From a virus: a DNA stretch of 64,000 nt. Below, piece by piece: positions 2,555 through 12,016 of this stretch. The position numbers were made by a program, and so were the translations under genes. Numbering within the stretch: the stretch's first letter is position 1; each line of letters opens with the position of its first letter. The DNA is taken from positions 8,829 through 72,828 of IMG/VR virus record IMGVR_UViG_3300014039_000016; one strand, 5' to 3'. Under the pieces are notes generated by a model. That model saw only the letters and a program-made list of their open reading frames with translations, was not told the DNA's origin and ran no database searches.

Positions 2555-2685
2555 CACATGATTATGGGAAGTTTTATTTGACTACTTGATTAGACTTTTG
2601 GAATTTGAAATGTTTAAATAACTAGAAATATAGTAAAATGCGGAGCGCTTTATGGGAGTAAGCGCACCGGCGATTTGAAATTGTA
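2555..2685. repeat. Copy B of the ~130-bp duplicated element (TAGTCACatgATTATGGGA ... AAAATGCGGaGCGCTTTATGGGAGtAAGCGC)
   Basis: Direct alignment with 1400-1530. A fifth TTATGGGA lies at about 2806-2814. Confidence 0.7.
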
Positions 2686-2903
2686 CGGGACTGTACTCTT
2701 GATGTATGCCATTTATTTTTTGATAAAGCTACAGACCGTACACAAGAGGTAGTCATCAGTTTAAAATAAAAAAAATTTTTCTTGTTTGTTTACTTTTACC
2801 CGGGGATATATTATGGGAAAATGAAAAATTAATTCTATAAAATCATATTTAGCTGGTACATTCACACACCCCAAATTTTTTGAAATTTAAAATACGAAAA
2901 GAT

Positions 2904-3209
2904 TTAATTCCGTACAACTCTTCCGTGCTTCCCTGTTTGCTTATATGCCATAAATAAATTATTTAATTTAATATTATTTCCATCTCCTAAATTAATTAAT
3001 AGGAAATCACAATTTTTTATAATATCTGCGGTTTCTGCATTTTTTATGTATCGGGTCGGTGCACCAACCGATTCAGCCCACTTTGCGGCAATACTATCCT
3101 TATTTGTTACTAACATATAAAATAAATAGCATTGACTTTCCGCAATTAATTTCTGCATTTCCGCATCAATATCTTCAATTTTATTAAAACCAATTGCCGC
3201 GACTACCAT
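2904..3209 (-). CDS. Hypothetical protein, possibly a small Rossmann-like fold
   Basis: ORF with an AAGGAG RBS. N-terminus MVVAAIGFNK. Confidence 0.45.
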   Translation of the reverse strand: MVVAAIGFNKIEDIDAEMQKLIAESQCYLFYMLVTNKDSIAAKWAESVGAPTRYIKNAETADIIKNCDFLLINLGDGNNIKLNNLFMAYKQTGKHGRVVRN

Positions 3210-3275
3210 TTTACCACTCCTTTATAATAATTATATCAAAAAATTTTTTTCTTTTCAAATTATCTACTTTTGTCC

Positions 3276-3304
3276 TTGACTTATGAAAATTTTTTTGGTA
3301 TAAT
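3276..3304 (+). promoter_or_regulatory. Sigma-A-type promoter: TTGACT, a 17-nt spacer ending in TGG, then TATAAT
   Basis: tccTTGACTtatgaaaatttttttgGTATAATtatt sits about 30 nt upstream of the RBS of the 3335 gene. Both hexamers are near-consensus with an extended -10 TG. Confidence 0.75.
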
Positions 3305-3334
3305 TATTATAAGAATAAGAATAAGGAGAGACTA

Positions 3335-4417
3335 ATGGAGCAACAAAAAGAAAATAGTGATTATATTAAAATGGATTTTAATATTGAATCACCTGCGGAA
3401 AGAGTAGAAAAAGTAAAAGAAATTATTGCCAACACTCCTCCTGAAAGATTAACTCATTCTTACTTAGAAAAATTAAGTAACTACATAATTTTTGCTATGG
3501 ATAAAGAAGAAAGAAAACAAAATAAAATCTTAACAGATAACCATATGCAAACAGTAAATGTAAGAGAGACATCTTTTGAAGGACTTGTAGGCAGATTAGA
3601 AAATGGCGAAGATGGTATATATAATATGATTGCGAATGACAAAAATATCATATTTAAGCCAAAATTTGAAATCACAGACGCGGATGTCGCGGAAATGCCT
3701 GAGTTAAGGGAACTCCGCAAGGGTATAGAAGAATTAAAGGAACAGTTAAAAGCAGCAAGAGGCAAAAAGGCATATCAAATAAAAAAACATATCATAGAAG
3801 CAAGTCAAGACCAGTATGTAATAAAAAATTCTTATAAAAAACCTATCTATTGTATAAATCCCCTTAAAAGTGTAGCAAAATTAGATTTAGATGAACATGT
3901 AACTATTGATGAAAATGATGAAATTCATACTGATGGTATTTTAAGTTTACTCGTGCCGCAACATATTTGCGCGGTATTGTGTAATTATGAAAAATTAAGA
4001 ATTCAAACTTGGGATAAATTAAATAGTGATGTTAAATGGTTTCTTGTAGATTTAGACAATCTTATAGATGAGACCTTAAAATATGATTATCCGATATATT
4101 ATGATATAACTCTCTTAAAGATTCGCGGCTATCAAAATACAGATATTCAAGAGTATTTAGAAAAAGAATATAATGTAAATCATTCTGTTGAATATATTTC
4201 TTCTCTTTGGAGAAACAAAATACCCAAACTACTTGCGGAAAAGGCTCAAGAAAAGTGGTTAGTTTGGTATTATACTAATAAAGCAGAAGGAAAATGGAAA
4301 AAATGTTCAAGGTGTGGGCAAATTAAGTTAGCTAGTAATAGATTCTTTTCAAAAAATAATACAAGCAAAGATGGTTTCTATAGTATATGTAAATGTTGTA
4401 GAAATAAAAGAAAATAA
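3335..4417 (+). CDS. Hypothetical protein with a C-terminal CxxC...CKCC zinc ribbon. It is the first gene of the rightward operon
   Basis: ORF with an AAGGAGAG RBS. C-terminus CSRCGQIKLASNRFFSKNNTSKDGFYSICKCC. Confidence 0.55.
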   Translation: MEQQKENSDYIKMDFNIESPAERVEKVKEIIANTPPERLTHSYLEKLSNYIIFAMDKEERKQNKILTDNHMQTVNVRETSFEGLVGRLENGEDGIYNMIANDKNIIFKPKFEITDADVAEMPELRELRKGIEELKEQLKAARGKKAYQIKKHIIEASQDQYVIKNSYKKPIYCINPLKSVAKLDLDEHVTIDENDEIHTDGILSLLVPQHICAVLCNYEKLRIQTWDKLNSDVKWFLVDLDNLIDETLKYDYPIYYDITLLKIRGYQNTDIQEYLEKEYNVNHSVEYISSLWRNKIPKLLAEKAQEKWLVWYYTNKAEGKWKKCSRCGQIKLASNRFFSKNNTSKDGFYSICKCCRNKRK

Positions 4418-4435
4418 TATAAAGGAGTTGACAAA

Positions 4436-5731
4436 ATGGGCGCACAAGAAGTAGAGCCAGGGAAATATTACTGTGAAAAATGTCGTAAGACAATGGGCGC
4501 AGTACAATTTTTTACCTATAAAGATGGTAGTAAAAGCGAATTGTGTAAGCAATGCTTAACTATGCATATTAACAACTGGGAGCCAGAAACATTCAAATGG
4601 CTATTGGAAAAATTTGATGTTCCATATCTCCCTTGGGAATGGGATAAAATTAGGGATAAACAATATGCGAAAGACCCCTATAAAATGACTGGAAATAGTG
4701 TTTTTGGTCGCTATCTCGCAAAAATGAAATTAAATCAATGGAATAAATATCATTGGTCTGATACTGAGCGGCTGGTGCGGGAGGCAGATGAACTTGCGAA
4801 TAGAGCGGCAGCGGCAAAAGAAGAAGATGAAAAACTTGAAAATATGCGAAAGCTCGCAGATGAAGGTGCAATTAGTGAATCTCAATATCAAACATACGCG
4901 GAAACGCAGATTGAGAAACCTATACCTAAGCCAGAGAGCTTACCCAACCCATATGAGAATGGGCAAGCCAATCCTGCATATCGAGCTGCCGCGCGAGCAT
5001 CTGTTTACCCTGTAAATAATAATCCATTTGAAGAGATTGATTTACCAGATGTCGGAAATGATTTAACGCAAGAGGATAAAATTTACTTAGCTACAAAATG
5101 GGGCAGATTTTATTCTGCGGAAGAGTGGGTAACTTTAGAAAAGAAATACAATGATTTCACAAATTCATTTGACATACATTCCGCGGCAACTATAGATACT
5201 TTAATTTTTATTTGTAAAACTTCATTAAAAATGAATCAGGCTCTTGATAGCGGAGATATTGAGTCTTATCAAAAATTATCAAGGGTTTATGATGCGCAGA
5301 TGAAAGCTGCGAAGTTCACAGAAGCGCAGAATAAAGAAGATAAAAGTAATGACTTTGATGCTATTGGTTGCATCGTTGAGTTCTGTGAAAAAGAAGGCGG
5401 CTTCATTCCAAGATTCTATACAGAGACTCCGCAAGATAAGGTTGATGTTGTTATTGCGGATGAAAAATCTTATGTTAAGTCTCTTGTTGATGGTGACTCT
5501 GGATTAGCACAACAGATAGAACAATATCTTAAGAAGCGTGAAATCCTTGAAGAACAAAAGAGAAATAAGGAAAAAGCAAAATTAGAAGGTAAAGAGCAGA
5601 TTGAATTAACAGATAAAGATATTCAAGAATATATAGAGCATCAGCAAAAAGAAAAAGAAAAAGATATTATCGCGGAAGATGATGATAATGAAGATAGTTT
5701 TGGAAGTCTTTTTAGCGTGGAGGTTGAATAA
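4436..5731 (+). CDS. Hypothetical protein with an N-terminal zinc ribbon, a coiled-coil and an acidic tail. It may be a small-terminase-like or DNA-binding packaging protein
   Basis: N-terminus CEKCRKTMGAVQFFTYKDGSKSELCKQC. It sits immediately upstream of terL. The function was not identified. Confidence 0.4.
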   Translation: MGAQEVEPGKYYCEKCRKTMGAVQFFTYKDGSKSELCKQCLTMHINNWEPETFKWLLEKFDVPYLPWEWDKIRDKQYAKDPYKMTGNSVFGRYLAKMKLNQWNKYHWSDTERLVREADELANRAAAAKEEDEKLENMRKLADEGAISESQYQTYAETQIEKPIPKPESLPNPYENGQANPAYRAAARASVYPVNNNPFEEIDLPDVGNDLTQEDKIYLATKWGRFYSAEEWVTLEKKYNDFTNSFDIHSAATIDTLIFICKTSLKMNQALDSGDIESYQKLSRVYDAQMKAAKFTEAQNKEDKSNDFDAIGCIVEFCEKEGGFIPRFYTETPQDKVDVVIADEKSYVKSLVDGDSGLAQQIEQYLKKREILEEQKRNKEKAKLEGKEQIELTDKDIQEYIEHQQKEKEKDIIAEDDDNEDSFGSLFSVEVE

Positions 5732-6354
5732 TGAGTTTACAAAGTATACTAGACCTTTCTGCGGAAAGAGATAATAAAAAAGTAGGCTGTTCAGAAGAAA
5801 GATTAAGAGAATGCCTTCCTGAATTGCGGAAGGCTATTGCTTTTTATCGTGAATATCCAGATATCTTTGTTGATGATATTAAAGGACCGGATTGTAACTT
5901 TCAATTTTATTTTTATCAGAGAGTTTTCTTAAGGTCGGTTATGCGACATCGTCGAGTTTATGCAGTATTTCCTCGTGCCTATAGTAAATCATTTCTAACT
6001 ATGATGGCTTTAATGCTGCGTGCGATTCTTTATCCAGGTGCAGCGTTATTTGTAACTACGGGCGGAAAAGAGCAAGCTGCAAGTATCACAATCGCGAAGA
6101 TTGAAGAAATTTGTCGACTTATTCCCGCGCTGAATAAAGAAATTAATTGGGATAGAGGAGCTTCAAAAAAATCAAAAGATAATGTAAAATACATCTTTAA
6201 GAATGGCTCTACTATTGATATTCTTGCGGCAAGGGAATCATCCAGAGGTCAGCGTCGTACTGGCGGAGCTATGGAAGAATGTGTACTTATTGATGGAACC
6301 GCCTTGAACGAAATAATTATTCCTAGACTTATAAGGTTGTGGGACCTAATTTAG
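5731..6354 (+). CDS. terL: Terminase large subunit, N-terminal ATPase part (exon 1). It carries a deviant Walker A, PRAYSKS
   Basis: The motif YAVFPRAYSKSF, the downstream ECVLID segment and synteny with the nuclease half and the portal. The ORF tail after VLID is probably intron read-through. Confidence 0.6.
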   Translation: MSLQSILDLSAERDNKKVGCSEERLRECLPELRKAIAFYREYPDIFVDDIKGPDCNFQFYFYQRVFLRSVMRHRRVYAVFPRAYSKSFLTMMALMLRAILYPGAALFVTTGGKEQAASITIAKIEEICRLIPALNKEINWDRGASKKSKDNVKYIFKNGSTIDILAARESSRGQRRTGGAMEECVLIDGTALNEIIIPRLIRLWDLI

Positions 6355-7399
6355 TAATAAATTAGTGCATGAACGGTGTGAACCCATTGGTTATGGGGTG
6401 TAGTATAAAGATATACTGCTAACGGTTAGGCTATAAATAAAGTGAGACCGTGCTAAGTTTATATTTTGTTATAAAAAAGTGTAGAGACTATCCAGAGGAG
6501 AAATACGCCTGGTTAGGGCTGAGAATAACCACAGCTCGAAGCGCACCGCAACTTTTTAAAATTTTTGGTCAAAAATATACAATAAAATTGTTCATTTTTT
6601 AATTTTATTGAGGGTATGTATATCCCGGGATAAAACTGAGTTATAGAAAGGAATTAAGAAAATGATTCAATGGAAAAAAAATTTTTATAGATGAAAAAGA
6701 GACTAATTACAGTGTTTCTAGCACTGGAGAGGTCAGAAATGATATAACTAAAAAAATATTATCACAAAGAATTCAACAAGGGTATAAACATGTAACTTTA
6801 TCATTACCAAATAAAATAAAATCATGTCGAGTTCACAGGCTTGTAGCACAAGCCTTTATTGAGAATCCTGAAAACAAACCCTATGTGAATCATATTGATT
6901 GTGATAGAAGTAATAATAATGTTGAAAATTTAGAATGGGTAACACCAAAAGAGAATTCTCAAAAAGCGGTTCTAGAAGGTAAATTTTTAAATAGTTCCCA
7001 TTTAAGACCTGTTGTTCAGTATAGTTTAGCAGGAAAAAAGATTAGAACTTTTGAAAGTGCCATTGAGGCAGCAAGACAGTTAAATTTACAACAATCTAAA
7101 ATAACAGAATGTTGTAGAAGAAATAGAAAAAGAACCGGAGAATATCAATGGAGATATGCAGATGAAGAATGTCTTCAATTAGAACCTATTCAAAAACAAA
7201 ATCGCCCTGGAGTGAAAGTTGCAAGATGCAACGATGATTTAGTTATATTAGAAATTTATAATTCCTATAAAGAAGCAGCAAATGCAATAAAAGGTAGTTA
7301 TCAAGCTATTGCTGCAATATGTAATGGAACAACTATAAATATTCATCATAAAGGCTGGAGATGGAAAAAAGTTGATGATATAGTCCAATCAAACAATGA
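6355..7399 (+). mobile_element. Intervening sequence splitting terL. I interpret it as a putative group I intron carrying an HNH homing endonuclease ORF
   Basis: About 300 nt of structured non-coding sequence (aaagatatactgc and agagactatcc resemble group I S/R elements; tatcccgggata is palindromic) precedes the HNH ORF. The downstream terL frame opens exactly at 7400 with no RBS or ATG. Confidence 0.5.
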
Positions 7400-7403
7400 T
7401 TGA
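6662..7403 (+). CDS. HNH homing endonuclease of the HNH_3 type. The ATG at 6662 with its RBS is in a different frame from the HNH core, and the two frames are separated by an A8 run at 6674-6681
   Basis: VNHIDCDRSNNNVENLEWVTPKEN HNH motif. The upstream in-frame peptide ...YSVSSTGEVRND matches the conserved N-terminus of this family. The track ORF 6885..7403 is the in-frame core. Confidence 0.8.
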
Positions 7404-8551
7404 CAACGAATGTTGATAGACGACTTGCAGACGGAAGTAGAGACCCTAAAGAAACAGTAAATAAAAGTCAGGTATATATTACAACCGCGGGATGGAAGAA
7501 TTCATTTGCATATGAACATCTGATTGAGATGTTAATTGATTCAATTCTAGACCCAGGTGAAGTAATGATACTAGGTGGAACATATGAAGTTCCAGTTGAA
7601 GCGGGCTTATTAAGTGAAGACTTTGTAGACCAGCTAAAATTGCAAGGTACATTCAATGATGCCTCCTTTGACCGAGAATATAGGAGTATTTGGTCAGGAG
7701 ACGCGGAAAATGCTTTCTTCTCCAATGAATTATTTGATAAATATCGTCAATTACTTCAACCAGAATATGAATTCAGTTCAAGAAGTTCAAAAAATGCATA
7801 CTATATACTTTCAGTCGATGTAGGTCGTTTTGGTTGTACAACTGAAGTTATGGTTATAAAAGTAACGCCGCAAGTGCAGGGAACAGCATTGAAGACTCTT
7901 GTTAATATTTATAGCTATGATGAAGAGCATTTTGGAGTTCAAGCTATAAATATAAAAAAACTTTATTACAAATATCGTGCGAGAACCGTGGTTATAGATG
8001 CCAATGGTCTAGGTGCTGGACTTGTGGACTTTATGATAATAGGTCAAGAAGACCCGAAAACAGGAGAATATTATCCACCTTTTGGAGTAGAAGGCGGAAC
8101 TTTCGATGATTGGTATGACCAGTATAAGAAATTTAAAACAGATGATATGGTTAGAGATGCGATGTATTTAATTAAGGCTAATGCGCCAATTAACACTGAA
8201 GCTCATAGTTATTGTCAAACTCAAATATCTAGTGGGAAAATTAAATTTTTAATTGATGAAAGAGATGCAAAAATAAAATTAATGTCCACAAAAGTTGGTC
8301 AAGAAATGACTCCAGAACAACGTGCGGAAAGGTTGATACCATTCACCTTAACCACGATACTGAAGGAACAAATGCTGAATCTGGTGGAAGAGAACGAGGG
8401 TGTAAATATTATTCTTAAGCAAGCTAATAGAGGAATTAAGAAAGATAAATTCTCTGCTTTCGAGTATGGATTATACTATATAAAGCAGCAAGAAGATAGG
8501 AAAAAAGATAGACATAGTAGAGATGTTTCAAAAATGATGTTTTTCAGTTAA
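7400..8551 (+). CDS. terL: Terminase large subunit, C-terminal part (exon 2) with an RNase-H-like nuclease domain
   Basis: YITTAGW and the acidic motifs ILSVDVGRFG and VVIDANGLGAGL. The frame opens at 7400 with only a TTG codon and no SD. Confidence 0.6.
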   Translation: MTTNVDRRLADGSRDPKETVNKSQVYITTAGWKNSFAYEHLIEMLIDSILDPGEVMILGGTYEVPVEAGLLSEDFVDQLKLQGTFNDASFDREYRSIWSGDAENAFFSNELFDKYRQLLQPEYEFSSRSSKNAYYILSVDVGRFGCTTEVMVIKVTPQVQGTALKTLVNIYSYDEEHFGVQAINIKKLYYKYRARTVVIDANGLGAGLVDFMIIGQEDPKTGEYYPPFGVEGGTFDDWYDQYKKFKTDDMVRDAMYLIKANAPINTEAHSYCQTQISSGKIKFLIDERDAKIKLMSTKVGQEMTPEQRAERLIPFTLTTILKEQMLNLVEENEGVNIILKQANRGIKKDKFSAFEYGLYYIKQQEDRKKDRHSRDVSKMMFFS

Positions 8552-8556
8552 AAAAT

Positions 8557-8593
8557 GCGGGCAGATTTATATAATTTGCCCGTACTTATTTTT
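8557..8593 (+). terminator. Possible intrinsic terminator (gcgggca...tgcccgt followed by acttattttt)
   Basis: A 6-7 bp GC stem with a 13-nt loop and a T-run. Confidence 0.4.
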
Positions 8594-8629
8594 AATTAAT
8601 ATAGTAAGGATTACATCATTGCACTTAAT

Positions 8630-9001
8630 GTGGAGGTGAGTAATTTGAGAAGTTCTCGTGGAGAAATAAAAATTGAAGAAATTTTAACAATGGCAAACTT
8701 ACCTTTTCAAGAGGAGTATAGTTTTCCAGACTTAGTAAGTTCGAGTGGAAGACCATTGCGTTTTGACTTCTGTGTATTCGATGACAATGGAGATATAGAT
8801 TTCTTAATCGAGTATCAAGGCATCCAACACTACGAGGCCAAGTCGAAATTTGGAGGTACTAAAGGATTGTATCGCCAGCAATATAATGATAAGATGAAAA
8901 GAATTTATTGCCAGCAACATAATTATACTTTAGTTATTATTCCTTATTGGGAAGAAGGACTAGTAGATTACGATTATTTATTAAAAGCCGCAGGTTATTG
9001 A
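8630..9001 (+). CDS. Vsr/DUF559-like protein with a PD-(D/E)xK endonuclease fold. It may be a free-standing nuclease
   Basis: RFDFCVFDDNGDIDFLIEYQGIQHYE resembles the DUF559 l.IE.DG.QH signature. Confidence 0.4.
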   Translation: MEVSNLRSSRGEIKIEEILTMANLPFQEEYSFPDLVSSSGRPLRFDFCVFDDNGDIDFLIEYQGIQHYEAKSKFGGTKGLYRQQYNDKMKRIYCQQHNYTLVIIPYWEEGLVDYDYLLKAAGY

Positions 9002-9052
9002 CTTTTAACGAAAATTTTGATATAATAAGAAAGTAAAGGGGGCGAAAGATTA

Positions 9053-10657
9053 GTGACTGAAAGAACCAAGGAGATTAGAGAAAAAGGTTTTGATATGTTT
9101 AATAAAGAACCTTCAGCTCCGACAACCTTTTACAAAGATATGTTTTCTGAAGATAAATCAGATATCTATTTTAGTAGTGTAAAAGTAGGTCAAAAGAAAC
9201 TTGATGATGCAACTTTAACACTTAGTGATTTAAAGAAAGCGAATCCAAGATTAGCTGATAAAAATACTATTTTACAAGCAATAGATAGATATGATTTAAA
9301 ACAAATGAGAGAAATCTCTGATTTCTTTTATCGAACAAGTGGAATTTATTCCAGAATATTAAGATATATGGCATTTATGTATAGATATGATTATTTTATT
9401 ACTCCTTATGTTAATGACTCAAATATGAATAAAGAAAAACTGTTAAAAGGTTTTTATAATTCAATGTCAACTTTAGATAATTTTAAAGTTAAAAAAACAT
9501 TAGGCGAAATCGCATTAAAAGTATTAAGACATGGATGTTATTATGGATATAAAGTTGAACAAAGCGGCGGGGTTGTGTTACAAGAATTACCACCAAATTA
9601 TTGCAGAAGCAGATTCTCAGCTAATGGTAAGCCCGCAGTTGAATTTAATATGAAATTTTTTGATGATAATTTTAGAGACATTCAACAAAGATTACAGGTA
9701 TTAAATATATTCCCTAAAGAGTTTTCTAAGGGATATGTAAAATATAAAAAAGGTTTATTACCACCACAATTCTCAGGTGATACAAATGGTTGGTATTTAT
9801 TAGACCCAAAACAAACAGTTAGATTTACTGCGAATGGAGAAGAATATCCTGCTTTCATTTCTGTAATTCCTTTAATATTAGATTTAGATGAAGCACAAGG
9901 TCTTGATAGAAAGAAAACTTTACAAAGATTATTAAAGCTTGTCGTTCAAAAAATGCCTTTAGACAAGAATGGAGAAATGATTTTTGATATTGATGAAATG
10001 AGAGCTTTTCATAATAATGCAGTTATGATGTTAAAAAATGCTTTAGGCTTAGAGGTTTTAACAACACTTGCGGATGTTAGTGTAGAAGATATGACTGACA
10101 GTAACGCATCCGCGCAAACAGATGATTTACAAAGAGTTGAGCGTCAATTGTATAATGAGGCGGGCGTATCTCAAATGCAATTTAATACAGATGGTAATAT
10201 TGCATTAGAGAAATCTATCTTAAATGATGAAGCTACAATGTATAATATGCTTTTACAATTTGAAGATTTTTTAAATGAATTGTTAGAGCCTTATAATAAA
10301 AGTCCTAAGAAAGTTCAATATAAAGTACAATTATTAACTACAACTATTTACAATTACAAAGAACTTTCAAAAGCATATAAAGAACAAACTCAATTAGGTT
10401 ATTCTAAAATGTTGCCGCAAATAGCCTTAGGTCAAACTCAAAGTAGTATTTTAGCTACTGCTTATTTTGAGAATGAAGTTCTTGATTTGGTTAGTTTATT
10501 CATTCCGCCTATGCAAAGTAGTGTAATGAATGCAGATATGTTAGATAGAACATCTAAAAAAGTTGCAAGCGGAAACGAAAAAGAGGCGGGAAGACCTGAA
10601 AAAGAAGATGACCAAAAATCAACTAAAACTATACAGAACAAAGAAAGTATGAGCTAG
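9053..10657 (+). CDS. Portal protein. The assignment rests on position and size
   Basis: A 534-aa ORF directly after terL. It has a GTG start with a strong RBS (aaagggggcgaaag). Confidence 0.55.
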   Translation: MTERTKEIREKGFDMFNKEPSAPTTFYKDMFSEDKSDIYFSSVKVGQKKLDDATLTLSDLKKANPRLADKNTILQAIDRYDLKQMREISDFFYRTSGIYSRILRYMAFMYRYDYFITPYVNDSNMNKEKLLKGFYNSMSTLDNFKVKKTLGEIALKVLRHGCYYGYKVEQSGGVVLQELPPNYCRSRFSANGKPAVEFNMKFFDDNFRDIQQRLQVLNIFPKEFSKGYVKYKKGLLPPQFSGDTNGWYLLDPKQTVRFTANGEEYPAFISVIPLILDLDEAQGLDRKKTLQRLLKLVVQKMPLDKNGEMIFDIDEMRAFHNNAVMMLKNALGLEVLTTLADVSVEDMTDSNASAQTDDLQRVERQLYNEAGVSQMQFNTDGNIALEKSILNDEATMYNMLLQFEDFLNELLEPYNKSPKKVQYKVQLLTTTIYNYKELSKAYKEQTQLGYSKMLPQIALGQTQSSILATAYFENEVLDLVSLFIPPMQSSVMNADMLDRTSKKVASGNEKEAGRPEKEDDQKSTKTIQNKESMS

Positions 10658-10669
10658 GAGGATTAAATA

Positions 10670-12016
10670 ATGAAACGAGCTTTTAATCGTAGTGTTGCTA
10701 CTATTGATGAGCCAGAGTTTATAAATGTCACTTCAATTAATCCTCTTATCTCCCAATGTGAAGTAAAGGTTTTATATGTAGGTGAAAACCGCAATAAATC
10801 TTTAATCACAAAAGAAGTTGCTAGGAATATGGCGGAAACCCTTCCAGGCTGTCCTATTGTTGGATATTATAGAGCAGATAAAGAAGATTTTTTTGACCAT
10901 GGCGATATTCTTACTATTGATGGAGATGGGATAAAATTTAGTGATGCAACAAGACCTTACGGTTTTGTAGCTCCAAATGCGAAGATTTGGTTTCAGAAAT
11001 TTATTGATACTGATGAAAATGGAGTAGAAACGGAAAGAGAATATTTAATGACGACAGCTTATTTATGGACTGGCTCTTATCCAGAGTGTGAACAAGCTTT
11101 AGACAATGGCAATCCGCAATCTATGAAATTAGAAAAAGACAGTTTAAAAGGAAATTGGGCAAAAACGGAAAATTCTAATGTTGAATTTTTCATAATAAAT
11201 GACGCGATAATTCAAAACTTATGTATTTTAGGAAAAGATGTTGAGCCTTGTTTTGAAGGTGCAAATGTATCTGAGCCAGATATAAGTGCTAATTTTAGTA
11301 AAGAAGATAATAATATTATTACTTTATTTACTATGATGGAGCAATTAAAAGAATTATTAACTACTCAAAAAGAAGGAGGACAAAGTTCAATGAGTATGGT
11401 CGAAGAGACTAAGCTTGATGATATTTCTGTTGAAAAATTTTCAAAAGAGCAGGACAAAAATGATGAAACTGTTCAAGAGAAAAATGAAAATACAATAGAA
11501 GAGTTCAAGAAACAGGATGAAGAAGAGAAACCTTCTGATAACAAAGAAGATGAATCTAAGGATAATAAAGAAGAGAAGTCTTCTGATAATAAAGACGAAA
11601 AAGATAGTGAAGACAAAGATGAAGATAAAAAGAAAAATGAGAATTTTGAATTACTTCAATCAGAGTTTGATGCCCTTCAGGCTAAATATACTTCATTAGA
11701 GGAGTCTTATAACGAACTCGTAGCTTTCAAGAAAAGCATCGAAGATAAGCAGAAAGATGAATTAATTCAGTCTTTTTATATGCTTAGCGATGAAGATAAG
11801 AAAGATGTCATTGAAAATAAGTCTAATTATAGTTTAGATGATATTGAGAAGGAACTTTCAGTTATTTGCGTAAGAAAGAAAGTTAATTTCAATTTAGATG
11901 ATGACAAAGAAGATTCTAAAGATGTTTCAACAACATTTAATTTAGATTCTTTAGAATCTGATAGTGATTTACCAGCTTGGTTAAAAGCGGTAGAGTCTAC
12001 AGCTAAAAAGCATTAA
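10670..12016 (+). CDS. Scaffolding-like protein with a globular N-terminal domain, a long acidic Lys/Asp/Glu repeat and a C-terminal coiled-coil. It may include a prohead protease domain
   Basis: Composition, and its position between the portal and capsid genes. Confidence 0.45.
   Translation: MKRAFNRSVATIDEPEFINVTSINPLISQCEVKVLYVGENRNKSLITKEVARNMAETLPGCPIVGYYRADKEDFFDHGDILTIDGDGIKFSDATRPYGFVAPNAKIWFQKFIDTDENGVETEREYLMTTAYLWTGSYPECEQALDNGNPQSMKLEKDSLKGNWAKTENSNVEFFIINDAIIQNLCILGKDVEPCFEGANVSEPDISANFSKEDNNIITLFTMMEQLKELLTTQKEGGQSSMSMVEETKLDDISVEKFSKEQDKNDETVQEKNENTIEEFKKQDEEEKPSDNKEDESKDNKEEKSSDNKDEKDSEDKDEDKKKNENFELLQSEFDALQAKYTSLEESYNELVAFKKSIEDKQKDELIQSFYMLSDEDKKDVIENKSNYSLDDIEKELSVICVRKKVNFNLDDDKEDSKDVSTTFNLDSLESDSDLPAWLKAVESTAKKH

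Follow-up and report, generated by a model that had tools for sequence, protein, structure and literature searches.

A large terminase gene in two halves

How does a phage make its large terminase when open-reading-frame inspection places the two halves of terL about 1 kb apart? In the window, the whole 64,000-nt stretch of viral DNA analysed here, the original prediction assigned the halves to 5731-6354 and 7400-8551 and attributed the gap to a group I intron. We reach the same reading with high confidence: 6325-7402 is, in all likelihood, a mobile, IA-like group I intron in terL, carrying an I-HmuI-like HNH gene in its P8 loop. The split and its size stood, and the end of exon 1 moved by 30 nt, to 6324. 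The locus is laid out as follows.

5731..6324, + strand: terL exon 1 (aa 1-198; ATPase N-terminal part with the Walker A-like PRAYSKS; ends ...NEIIIP)
6325..7402, + strand: group I intron (1078 nt; boundaries from the intron-less allele L004 and the same insertion in L050)
6662..7403, + strand: I-HmuI-like HNH homing endonuclease gene (Pfam and PDB 1U3E; frameshifted in the window)
7403..8551, + strand: terL exon 2 (aa 199-580; TTNVDRR..., ATPase motif III region and nuclease domain)

A GGAGG sequence lies 8 nt 5′ of the terL ATG at 5731. The upstream frame runs over 5731-6354, of which only 5731-6324 is terL; its final 9 codons (RLIRLWDLI*) come from reading on into the intron, where the terL frame meets TAG 6352-6354, 10 codons in, and more stops after it. 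An ORF-free stretch of about 307 nt (6355-6661) follows, in agreement with the roughly 300 nt of structured DNA predicted ahead of an HNH_3 ORF, and folding of the intron's first 236 nt gave z = -3.97 relative to shuffled sequences. At the other end, TGA 7397-7399 closes the downstream terL frame, which reopens at 7400 and is overlapped, as had been noted, by the endonuclease stop TGA 7401-7403. The downstream half was also correctly described as having no start ATG and no Shine-Dalgarno sequence: an in-frame TTG at 7400 is its only candidate start, no GGAGG-type sequence occurs within 20 nt upstream, and the first in-frame Met of exon 2 comes about 43 codons in, beyond the conserved SQVYITTAGW motif.

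Intron-less alleles fix the junction

Joining the exons gave a 580-aa protein that aligned gap-free with L001/MT836163.1 at 73% identity (tblastn), matched phrog_2 (terminase large subunit) across the junction and was 100% identical to the uninterrupted ORF of the intron-less allele L004. Removal of the insert therefore restores a frame that is colinear with intron-less homologues. The L004 DNA aligned to window positions 2860-6323 and 7403-11551 at 93-94% and skipped exactly 6325-7402, so that the alignment to intron-less terL that had been proposed as a check fixed the junction at 6324/7403. The two alleles encode the same TerL although their DNA has diverged by about 6% through synonymous changes, which indicates that purifying selection acts on the joined protein. 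On these alignments, the insertion site is between codons 198 and 199, in the part of an SPbeta-YonF-type terL that encodes the ATPase domain. The same insertion was found, at 96% identity, in L050, an independent contig.

The last base of exon 1, U6324, is the 5′ splice-site U, and the 3′ terminal base of the intron is the omega-G, G7402, 4 nt from the G7398 first proposed as the 3′ splice site. Homologous introns, with or without an endonuclease gene, occupy the same terL site in at least 15 other phage sequences. Our core pattern matched 49 IMG/VR loci, 22 of them within terL homologues; every junction-mapped intron (15/15) was inserted at the window's terL codon, and the exon 1 match stopped at aa 198 in all same-site relatives. 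The U at -1 and the G at the 3′ end are shared by the window and 14 of these 15 introns; L096 is the exception, the other mapped introns having frame-consistent boundaries and a terminal G. Same-site insertions that are ORF-less (260-292 nt) have the same conserved, covarying RNA core and differ from the ORF-containing ones solely in the P8-loop cassette, in place of which they form a plain P8 hairpin.

A group I ribozyme core supported by covariation

The paired elements of the intron, from 5′ to 3′, are the following.

6321..6344, + strand: P1, exon UCCU 6321-6324 with the internal guide GGGA 6341-6344
6336..6340, + strand: P10 guide GUUGU, able to pair with ACAAC 7403-7407 at the start of exon 2 (read from the sequence)
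6346..6365, + strand: P2 hairpin CUAAUUUA-GUAA-UAAAUUAG, in the minimum-free-energy fold
6374..6380, + strand: P3 5′ strand CGGUGUG, pairing with 6542-6548
6383..6419, + strand: hairpins A (6383-6397) and B (6400-6419), conserved extras between P3 and P4
6422..6451, + strand: P4, ACGGUU 6422-6427 with GACCGU 6446-6451, around a weak or reduced P5 region
6452..6478, + strand: P6, UUUAUA 6458-6463 with UAUAAA 6470-6475
6479..6490, + strand: R element GUGUAGAGACUA, with the P7 5′ strand (G6484, bulged A6485, G6486-A6490)
6491..6541, + strand: P7.1 (CCAG 6492-6495/CUGG 6509-6512) and P7.2 (GGGCUG 6516-6521/CAGCUC 6532-6537)
6542..6548, + strand: P3 3′ strand CGCACCG, pairing with 6374-6380
6549..6557, + strand: P8 5′ strand CAACUUUUU, pairing with 7366-7374
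7366..7386, + strand: P8 3′ strand (7366-7374), J8/7 AUGAUA (7375-7380) and P7′ UAGUCC (7381-7386)
7387..7402, + strand: P9 hairpin, AAUCA 7387-7391 with UGAUU 7397-7401, then the omega-G, G7402

At the 5′ splice site, U6324 forms a wobble pair with G6341 of the internal guide, and A6325-U6340 extends the helix. P1 was canonical in 60/60 cells across the 15 same-site introns, with position -4 covarying among U-A, C-G and G-C. P10 was confined to the window/L050 lineage among the mapped same-site introns, and relatives have P2-equivalent hairpins of different sequence. All seven P3 pairs formed in 31 of 33 relatives, with compensatory changes at four positions; in the 15 same-site introns P3 was 98% canonical, compared with 26% when the partner strand was slid by one. 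P4 was 100% canonical, with two to three pair types at three positions, and the outer 6 pairs of P8 were 97% canonical, with up to four pair types. RNAalifold recovered both hairpins A and B with the window left out of the alignment, and hairpin B showed four covarying pairs. In per-sequence folds, most relatives had a P6-equivalent hairpin, and P5 was weak or absent in the window copy. P7.1 and P7.2 formed in the window fold, with counterparts of differing sequence in the relatives' folds, and every same-site intron ended in a terminal hairpin followed by G.

The R-like agagactatcc of the original prediction is real (6483-6493). The accompanying S box did not hold: aaagatatactgc at 6408-6420 comprises the loop and 3′ strand of hairpin B and lies 5′ of R, whereas the true S element, gatgatatagtcc, is at 7374-7386 within the endonuclease coding sequence. 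The R element is invariant within the subfamily and pairs with 7381-7386, and G6486-C7385 would constitute the guanosine-binding pair. P7 and R/S carry no covariation signal because they are invariant across relatives. The conserved group I core (the P3/P7 pseudoknot, P4-P6, P8 and R/S) is present, with P5 weak in the window. The architecture is IA-like as judged from P7.1 and P7.2, which follow the 5′ strand of P7 and precede the 3′ strand of P3.

A separate alignment of 25 relatives, excluding the window, paired in 97.5% of cells compared with 33-54% in slid controls. Its covariation score was 0.603 against 0.149 in shuffles, none of 500 shuffles reached 0.603, and double changes occurred in eleven pairs; across relatives, covariation is seen in P1, P3, P4, P8 and both extra hairpins. 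The covariance model R1, derived from these 25 sequences, gave a single match in the window, at 6374-6548, full length, with 100.8 bits (E 1.1e-20) and zero non-canonical pairs flagged. Moreover, the pattern running from R to the P3 3′ strand was expected 0.03 times in the window and was found once. Comparison establishes the exact intron boundaries and a paired core of P1, P2, P3, P4, P6, P7, P7.1, P7.2, P8 and P9.

The Rfam search that the original prediction had proposed returned no match to RF00028 in the window, nor did short sub-ranges searched at E<=10 yield one, and the window remained below the gathering threshold of 50 bits. The same codon in Enterococcus phage EF1 (L002 1875-2157) and in L076 holds a homologous ORF-less intron that passed it, with 52.1 and 51.1 bits respectively. 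Comparison also establishes homology of the window sequence to ORF-less same-codon introns, some of which pass the Rfam threshold. Since 5 of 7 ORF-less same-site homologues also fell below this threshold, the miss on the window reflects insensitivity of the model to the subfamily. Collectively, the junction, the U/G boundaries, the covariation, the R1 match and the same-codon EF1 intron support the view that a group I intron interrupts terL.

A frameshifted endonuclease gene in the P8 loop

The P8 loop (6558-7365) houses the endonuclease gene. Its product matched HNH_3 (4.5e-10), NUMOD1 (6e-11), NUMOD4 (1.5e-7) and I-HmuI_NUMOD-like (2e-9) in Pfam, and I-HmuI (PDB 1U3E) at E 1.7e-13, with HRLVA and NH.D...N...NL.WVT conserved. 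The HNH motif, NUMOD modules and similarity to I-HmuI together identify an I-HmuI-like HNH enzyme. The last 37 nt of the ORF double as ribozyme P8′, J8/7, P7′ and P9, and its stop, UGA 7401-7403, straddles the 3′ splice site (U7401 G7402 | A7403).

A frameshift that the earlier reading had overlooked interrupts this ORF. From ATG 6662, translation reads MIQWKKNFYR*, 10 codons and then a stop. The run at 6674-6681 holds one extra A (A8 in the window, A7 in L050 and five other relatives), and the ORF is intact in L050. Given this +1 frameshift, the window copy, which has no intact translatable ORF, is probably dead, unless the extra A is an assembly error; a sequencing error is possible. Current mobility of the window intron is doubtful since the endonuclease ORF is frameshifted. 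The lesion sits in the P8 loop, outside the ribozyme, which is unaffected.

Alternative explanations

An endonuclease gene between two terL halves also recalls a gene in pieces, as in Aeromonas phage Aeh1, where mobE splits nrdA. A free-standing endonuclease cassette would then have split terL into halves whose separately translated products combine as a functional terminase, and under direct translation the halves are indeed separate ORFs, the second with an in-frame TTG at 7400. We consider this very unlikely. The downstream half lacks both a start codon and a ribosome-binding site of its own, with no Shine-Dalgarno sequence before 7400 and its first in-frame Met past SQVYITTAGW. Furthermore, the boundaries follow the U/G rule, the identical-protein allele L004 is contiguous, and other phages carry ORF-less insertions of 260-292 nt with the same covarying core at the same codon, elements that endonuclease insertion cannot explain. 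Two independently translated halves, named beforehand as evidence against an intron, were not seen in homologues, which are contiguous or carry ORF-less introns with stops.

The frameshifted endonuclease, the weak P5 and the failure of Rfam to recognise the core could instead indicate a decayed, non-splicing remnant or pseudogene, with a non-functional terL in, for example, a defective phage or a mis-assembled contig. Such decay is highly improbable, as all core helices are intact in the window, where the R1 alignment flagged no non-canonical pair, and the frameshift is confined to the P8 loop. Both exons are open and encode the TerL of the intron-less allele despite the synonymous divergence, and L050 carries the same intron in an independent contig. 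For a group II intron, an intein or translational bypassing, the interrupted coding sequence is the sole and unspecific support, and we give these almost no weight. The insert is not an intein, because the terL frame meets a stop 10 codons in and no single open frame spans it; no group II family reached the Rfam threshold and there is no reverse-transcriptase ORF; and, at 1078 nt, the gap exceeds more than 20-fold the 50-nt hop of T4 gene 60, the only known bypass.

Proposed splicing pathway

With a group I intron as the preferred reading, we infer that the window intron splices. In the pre-mRNA, the end of exon 1 would pair with the guide GGGA 6341-6344, placing U6324 opposite G6341, and the attack after U6324 would come from a free guanosine docked at G6486-C7385 in P7. 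G7402 would then take the guanosine site, with P10 (6336-6340 with 7403-7407) helping positioning in the window/L050 lineage; exon 2 begins with ACAAC in the window, and the corresponding bases of the intron-less allele are ACUAC. The 3′-OH of exon 1 would attack after G7402, ligating ...AUUAUUCCU|ACAACGAAU... and restoring the 580-aa TerL. The expected mRNA junction is ...ATTATTCCT|ACAACGAAT..., and full-length TerL would be 66 kDa. Intact endonuclease copies, such as that of L050, would drive homing by nicking alleles that lack the intron, L004 for example.

A more speculative reading concerns the window/L050 lineage, in which the endonuclease ORF crosses P8′, J8/7, P7′ and P9 and the first base of exon 2 completes its stop. 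A ribosome on this ORF would unfold the catalytic core because of the overlap, and excised intron RNA would carry no endonuclease stop because A7403 completes it. Endonuclease expression and splicing could therefore be mutually exclusive on each transcript, the enzyme coming from unspliced precursor alone; if true, the element would contain its own switch, set either to selfish spread or to expression of the host gene. Another possibility is that the extra P3-P4 hairpins and shrunken P5 define a structural subclass missed by current Rfam-type models. Taken jointly, we regard these proposals as unlikely, although not negligible.

Comparison with known introns

Selfish elements of this type are well known from phage genes, and the window intron, resolved here to single-base precision, is no new phenomenon. 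Lactobacillus phage LL-H has a group I intron with a homing endonuclease in its large-terminase gene. Group I introns that carry a homing endonuclease are on record from phage terL, with splicing demonstrated for some (PMC11878797, PMC4599081, PMC12880540, PMC2504315); they occur in Bastillevirinae such as SIOphi (PMC11878797), Bacillus phage Silence (PMC4599081), the B. cereus prophage (term-IVS1/2; PMC2504315) and Jug phages (PMC12880540). Like the window intron, those of SIOphi, Silence, term-IVS1/2, Jug and LL-H combine an IA-type ribozyme in terL with, often, an HNH gene in a loop. In these published introns, the part on one side of the nuclease loop often escapes Rfam-type models, and splicing was shown for some in vitro or in metatranscriptomes. 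Unlike them, the window terL belongs to a YonF/SPbeta-like family, and the insertion site is presumably different.

Among phage ribozymes of subgroup IA2, Twort orf142-I2 and the T4 td, nrdB and nrdD introns share with the window the R/S consensus, the pair of hairpins P7.1 and P7.2 that separates P7 from P3′, and AA...AAUC on the flanks of P4; in the T4 nrdD (sunY) intron the 3′ splice site is likewise far from the core. The window subfamily differs in its two conserved P3-P4 hairpins, in a variable, often tiny P5, and in an ORF in P8 rather than in P6 or P9.1. The endonuclease resembles I-HmuI, from the SPO1 DNA-polymerase intron, in domain order (NUMOD4-like N-terminus, HNH, NUMOD repeats), with 163 aligned residues, and for each the gene lies within a loop of a group I intron in a phage. 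The two differ in host gene and target site; an extra C-terminal repeat brings the window protein to 246 aa, compared with 174 aa for I-HmuI, and the window copy is frameshifted, any nicking activity being putative.

Intron 1 of EF1 terL (MF001358.1; L002 1887-2157) has the same host gene family, insertion codon (...I(I/L)P|xxNV...) and P1 logic as the window, and a common core of GUGAACC, hairpin A, GUGU, hairpin B, GCUAACG...GUGUAGAGACUA...AAGCGC...AUAGUCC. It is 273 nt long with no ORF and a full P5, whereas the window intron carries the HNH gene in a P8-loop cassette of about 800 nt, its P5 is reduced, its P1 loop is longer and it has a 5-bp P10; EF1 terL holds three introns and the window terL one.

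Boundaries of the insert in terL

Direct translation revealed ORFs at 5731-6354 (207 aa) and 7400-8551 (383 aa) that lie in different frames and are separated by ~307 nt devoid of any ORF, followed by an endonuclease open frame closing at the TGA at 7401-7403. Together with the Pfam domains, this bore out the original prediction that the two halves of terL, the large terminase gene, are split by an insert carrying an HNH ORF behind ~300 nt of non-coding DNA. The downstream frame opens at 7400, past the TGA at 7397-7399, and is without a Shine-Dalgarno sequence, also as predicted; its sole start candidate is a TTG at 7400. The ATPase half proposed at 5731-6354 exists as an ORF, but its last 30 nt are intron read-through, and exon 1 ends at 6324.

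Since megablast of 5600-8700 against GenBank phages returned no matches, we turned to protein searches. Neither half alone matched a Pfam terminase family; tblastn against GenBank phages tied both to large terminases of the SPbeta YonF type in phages of Bacillus, Lactococcus, Enterococcus and Geobacillus and in gut phages, and the joined protein matched phrog_2 ('terminase large subunit') across the exon junction. In MT836163.1, the match to the first half (2576-3169) ends immediately before that to the second (3170-4315). Joining 5731-6324 to 7403-8551 yields a 580-aa product that aligns without gaps to MT836163.1 over 580 residues at 73% identity, reading ...NEIIIP/TTNVDRR... at the junction (slash) against ...NEVIIPTTNVDRL... 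in MT836163.1. Furthermore, an uninterrupted IMG/VR allele (L004) encodes a TerL 100% identical to the joined product, and its DNA is 93-94% identical to the window over 2860-6323 and 7403-11551 and lacks the insert; a second contig (L050), 96% identical, carries the same insert.

Alignment to these intron-less homologues, MT836163.1 and L004, fixed the boundaries at 6325-7402. The ambiguity is limited to a single A (6325 = 7403), and we placed the intron (1078 nt) at 6325-7402 because a U at -1 and a G at the intron end constitute the canonical arrangement. The predicted ligated-exon junction is ATTATTCCT/ACAACGAAT, and the corresponding site in L004 reads ...ATCATTATTCCAACTACAAATGTC.... Intron-plus alleles carry CCU + ACAAC where the intron-less allele has CCA + ACUAC, differences that fit the P1 and P10 pairings. 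The 3' splice site originally proposed at G7398 lies 4 nt too far upstream of the true site after G7402; splicing there would remove 4 nt from the sequence coding for the conserved TTNV and put exon 2 out of frame. We also considered a co-conversion tract or extra divergence at the insertion site, but 7 differences per 50 nt beside the junction versus ~4 elsewhere was not convincing.

Same-site relatives and the silence of Rfam

Rfam cmscan detected no group I match in the whole window at the gathering threshold, and the group I intron model RF00028 stayed silent on 6200-7600 and 6305-6575 even at E<=10, so the check suggested with the original prediction came back negative. However, terL of Enterococcus phage EF1 contains at the same codon (...ILP/MMNVS...) a 273-nt ORF-less insert that is visibly homologous to the window intron and scores 52.1 bits on RF00028 (threshold 50). 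A core pattern built from the window and EF1 (GTGAACC N85-115 GTGTAGAGACTA) occurred at 49 IMG/VR loci, 22 of them in terL homologues. The junction was mapped in 15 terL copies, all of which (15/15) are inserted after aa 198; seven (260-292 nt) have no ORF, and the remaining eight (about 1040-1078 nt) contain one of HNH type. EF1 and L076 are the only ORF-less same-site copies to reach the RF00028 threshold. Given the passing EF1 homologue, the recurrence of the core at one terL site and the failure of the other ORF-less copies, the silence of RF00028 on the window is a sensitivity problem.

Several introns are common in this terL family, which is an intron hot spot: EF1 has three, of which the two not yet described are also group I introns, one scoring 87.9 bits and the other 39.4 + 22.6 bits on the two sides of an annotated HNH gene. 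In L058, L071, L080 and L082, terL is broken into as many as four or five exon pieces. In one ORF-less same-site intron (L096, 5283-5564), a U at -1 and a 3' G put exon 2 one base out of frame; the frame is kept only with C at -1 or A at the intron end, pointing to an error or an unusual splice site.

Conserved ribozyme helices

Helices were scored by anchored extraction in the 15 same-site introns.

Elements of the intron core (window positions; pairing counts from the 15 same-site introns)
6321-6324 with 6341-6344: P1, exon UCCU with guide GGGA; 60/60 canonical cells; U-G wobble; position -4 U-A, C-G or G-C
6336-6340: P10 guide GUUGU in the P1 loop, complementary to ACAAC at 7403-7407
6346-6365: P2 hairpin, GUAA loop
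6374-6380 with 6542-6548: P3; 103/105 canonical, 26% when slid by one; 2-3 pair types at four positions
6383-6397 and 6400-6419: two subfamily-specific hairpins after the P3 5' strand
6422-6427 with 6446-6451: P4; 90/90 canonical cells; P5 nearly absent
Between P4 and R / P7 5' strand: P6
G6484, bulged A6485, G6486-A6490 with U7381-C7386: P7; 87/90 canonical cells
6492-6537: P7.1 and P7.2
6549-6557 with 7366-7374: P8; 87/90 canonical (outer 6 pairs); ~800-nt loop containing the endonuclease cassette
3' end of intron: J8/7, then P7 3' strand, P9 and omega-G (7402)

P7 is invariant and therefore uninformative for covariation, and P2, P6, P7.1, P7.2 and P9 exist as hairpins whose sequences vary by lineage. 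Among the same-site introns, P10 was not found in lineages other than that of the window and L050; nothing convincing was seen for P5 in the window, where at most 3 bp could form. An A-C mismatch in P7 (3' strand AUAGCCC) was observed in L057, L058 and L074, beside the presumed guanosine-binding pair.

A MAFFT alignment of ORF-deleted introns (A1) misaligned hairpin B and P4 of the window and was replaced by anchor-based extraction and an alignment, A2, that covers the P3-to-P3' domain in 25 relatives and excludes both the window and L050. RNAalifold on A2 recovered P3, P4 and the two hairpins between them, with 97.5% paired cells versus 33-54% for slid partners, double changes in 11 pairs, and a covariation score of 0.603 versus 0.149 in shuffles (0/500 reached 0.603). 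Moreover, a covariance model based on A2 gave a single, full-length match in the window, at 6374-6548 (100.8 bits, E 1.1e-20), and its alignment flagged no non-canonical pairs.

The R-like element had been recognized correctly (6483-6493). The S box proposed at 6408-6420 was rejected, as it sits 5' of R in hairpin B (6400-6419), supplying the loop plus the 3' strand. The real S element is gaugauauagucc at 7374-7386, within the final codons of the endonuclease ORF. We likewise rejected the notion that the extra hairpins are a rare novelty: the same core pattern is present in 107 stretches of diverse genomes (genome contigs L107-L186), among them Bacillus, Neobacillus, heterocystous cyanobacteria, Alistipes, Trinickia and two archaeal MAGs, indicating that this core type is widespread.

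Alternative explanations

Independent translation of the two terL halves is unlikely, for the downstream half has no ribosome-binding site, ORF-less inserts share the same covarying RNA core, and the contiguous allele encodes an identical protein. The stop codons within the insert, its size and the lack of matching RNA or protein signatures exclude an intein, a group II intron or translational bypassing. A decayed remnant that no longer splices is improbable in view of the intact helices and of the strong purifying selection acting on the joined protein. The exact junction, the covarying helices, the covariance-model match and the RF00028-passing EF1 homologue collectively support the predicted identity of the insert as a group I intron.

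In group I introns, an exogenous G attacks the 5' splice site and the exons are then ligated. By analogy with established introns of this class, attack would occur after U6324 and ligation would follow after G7402.

The endonuclease gene

The insert ORF contains NUMOD4, HNH_3, NUMOD1 and I-HmuI_NUMOD-like Pfam domains. Removing one A from the run at 6674-6681 gives a 246-aa endonuclease with a conserved HNH motif that matches I-HmuI (PDB 1U3E; E 1.7e-13). L050 and five further relatives have A7 in this run, and the window has A8; the additional A shifts the HNH gene out of frame after codon 6, so that ATG 6662 reads just 10 codons. This could be either a real inactivating mutation, leaving a dead endonuclease gene, or a homopolymer sequencing or assembly error. 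In the window lineage, the final 37 nt of the ORF double as P8', J8/7, P7' and P9, and the stop codon straddles the 3' splice site.

Homing endonuclease genes usually pass through a cycle of gain, decay and loss. Decayed ORFs in other lineages (L082, L045) and near-identical cores with and without the ORF (ORF-less L091 versus L099 and L062) fit this cycle. At two positions occupied by Gln or Glu in its relatives, the HNH ORF of L045 (2384-2992) has an in-frame TAG, and the annotation of the terL relative Phass-1 places that phage in the 'code 15 clade'. TAG may therefore be a sense codon in some relatives, and the L045 gene would not have to be regarded as decayed.

Upstream of the endonuclease start, the P8 loop (6558-6661) contains the blocks TTGGTCAA, TTGGACAA and AGGGCAAC and a TATA-rich block, kept in the window and, as equivalents, in the divergent lineages L045, L057, L062 and L082; they may represent a promoter or regulatory signal of the cassette.

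Neighbouring genes

Features flanking terL
4436-5731, +: 431-aa ORF overlapping the terL start (ATGA), with an N-terminal CxxC...CxxC zinc-ribbon-like motif
8556-8584, +: strong terminator-like hairpin (12 pairs, then a T run) directly 3' of the terL stop codon
8630-9001, +: 123-aa ORF between terL and the portal gene (9053-10657, phrog_2739)

The upstream ORF, whose sole match was phrog_3314 (unknown function) and which has a homologue in EF1, is a candidate small terminase or packaging partner. The 8630-9001 ORF had no Pfam matches and matched PHROGs labelled 'homing endonuclease' or 'intron encoded nuclease' (phrog_9084, 3.9e-28; phrog_559); because its EF1 homologue (4378-4746) is equally placed, it may be a fixed accessory nuclease rather than a mobile gene.

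Relation to known terL introns

These results correct the annotation of two 'hypothetical' fragments and an intervening gap to a single essential packaging gene. The phrog_15503 and phrog_24618 families, which match aa 8-232 and 349-578 of the joined TerL and are both labelled 'unknown function', may have been built from intron-split terL pieces. As the Rfam model is blind to the window intron and to the majority of the ORF-less copies related to it, gene callers and screens for introns will underestimate how many such elements metagenomes of gut phages contain. The intron-plus and intron-minus alleles with identical proteins are useful for homing studies, and the ORF-less, ORF-intact and ORF-decayed versions at one site form a natural allele series for the homing cycle.

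Biologically, nothing here is unexpected, given that phage terL genes are already known to harbour group I introns with HNH genes. Such introns with homing endonuclease genes have been described in terL of Bastillevirinae (PMC11878797), of Bacillus phage Silence (PMC4599081), of B. cereus prophages (PMC2504315), and of gut Jug phages with metatranscriptome support (PMC12880540). In the Bastillevirinae study, splicing of the SIOphi TerL intron was shown in vitro, and its authors noted that one side of the nuclease loop is often missed by models. That the window intron is one more case of this documented class is well supported.
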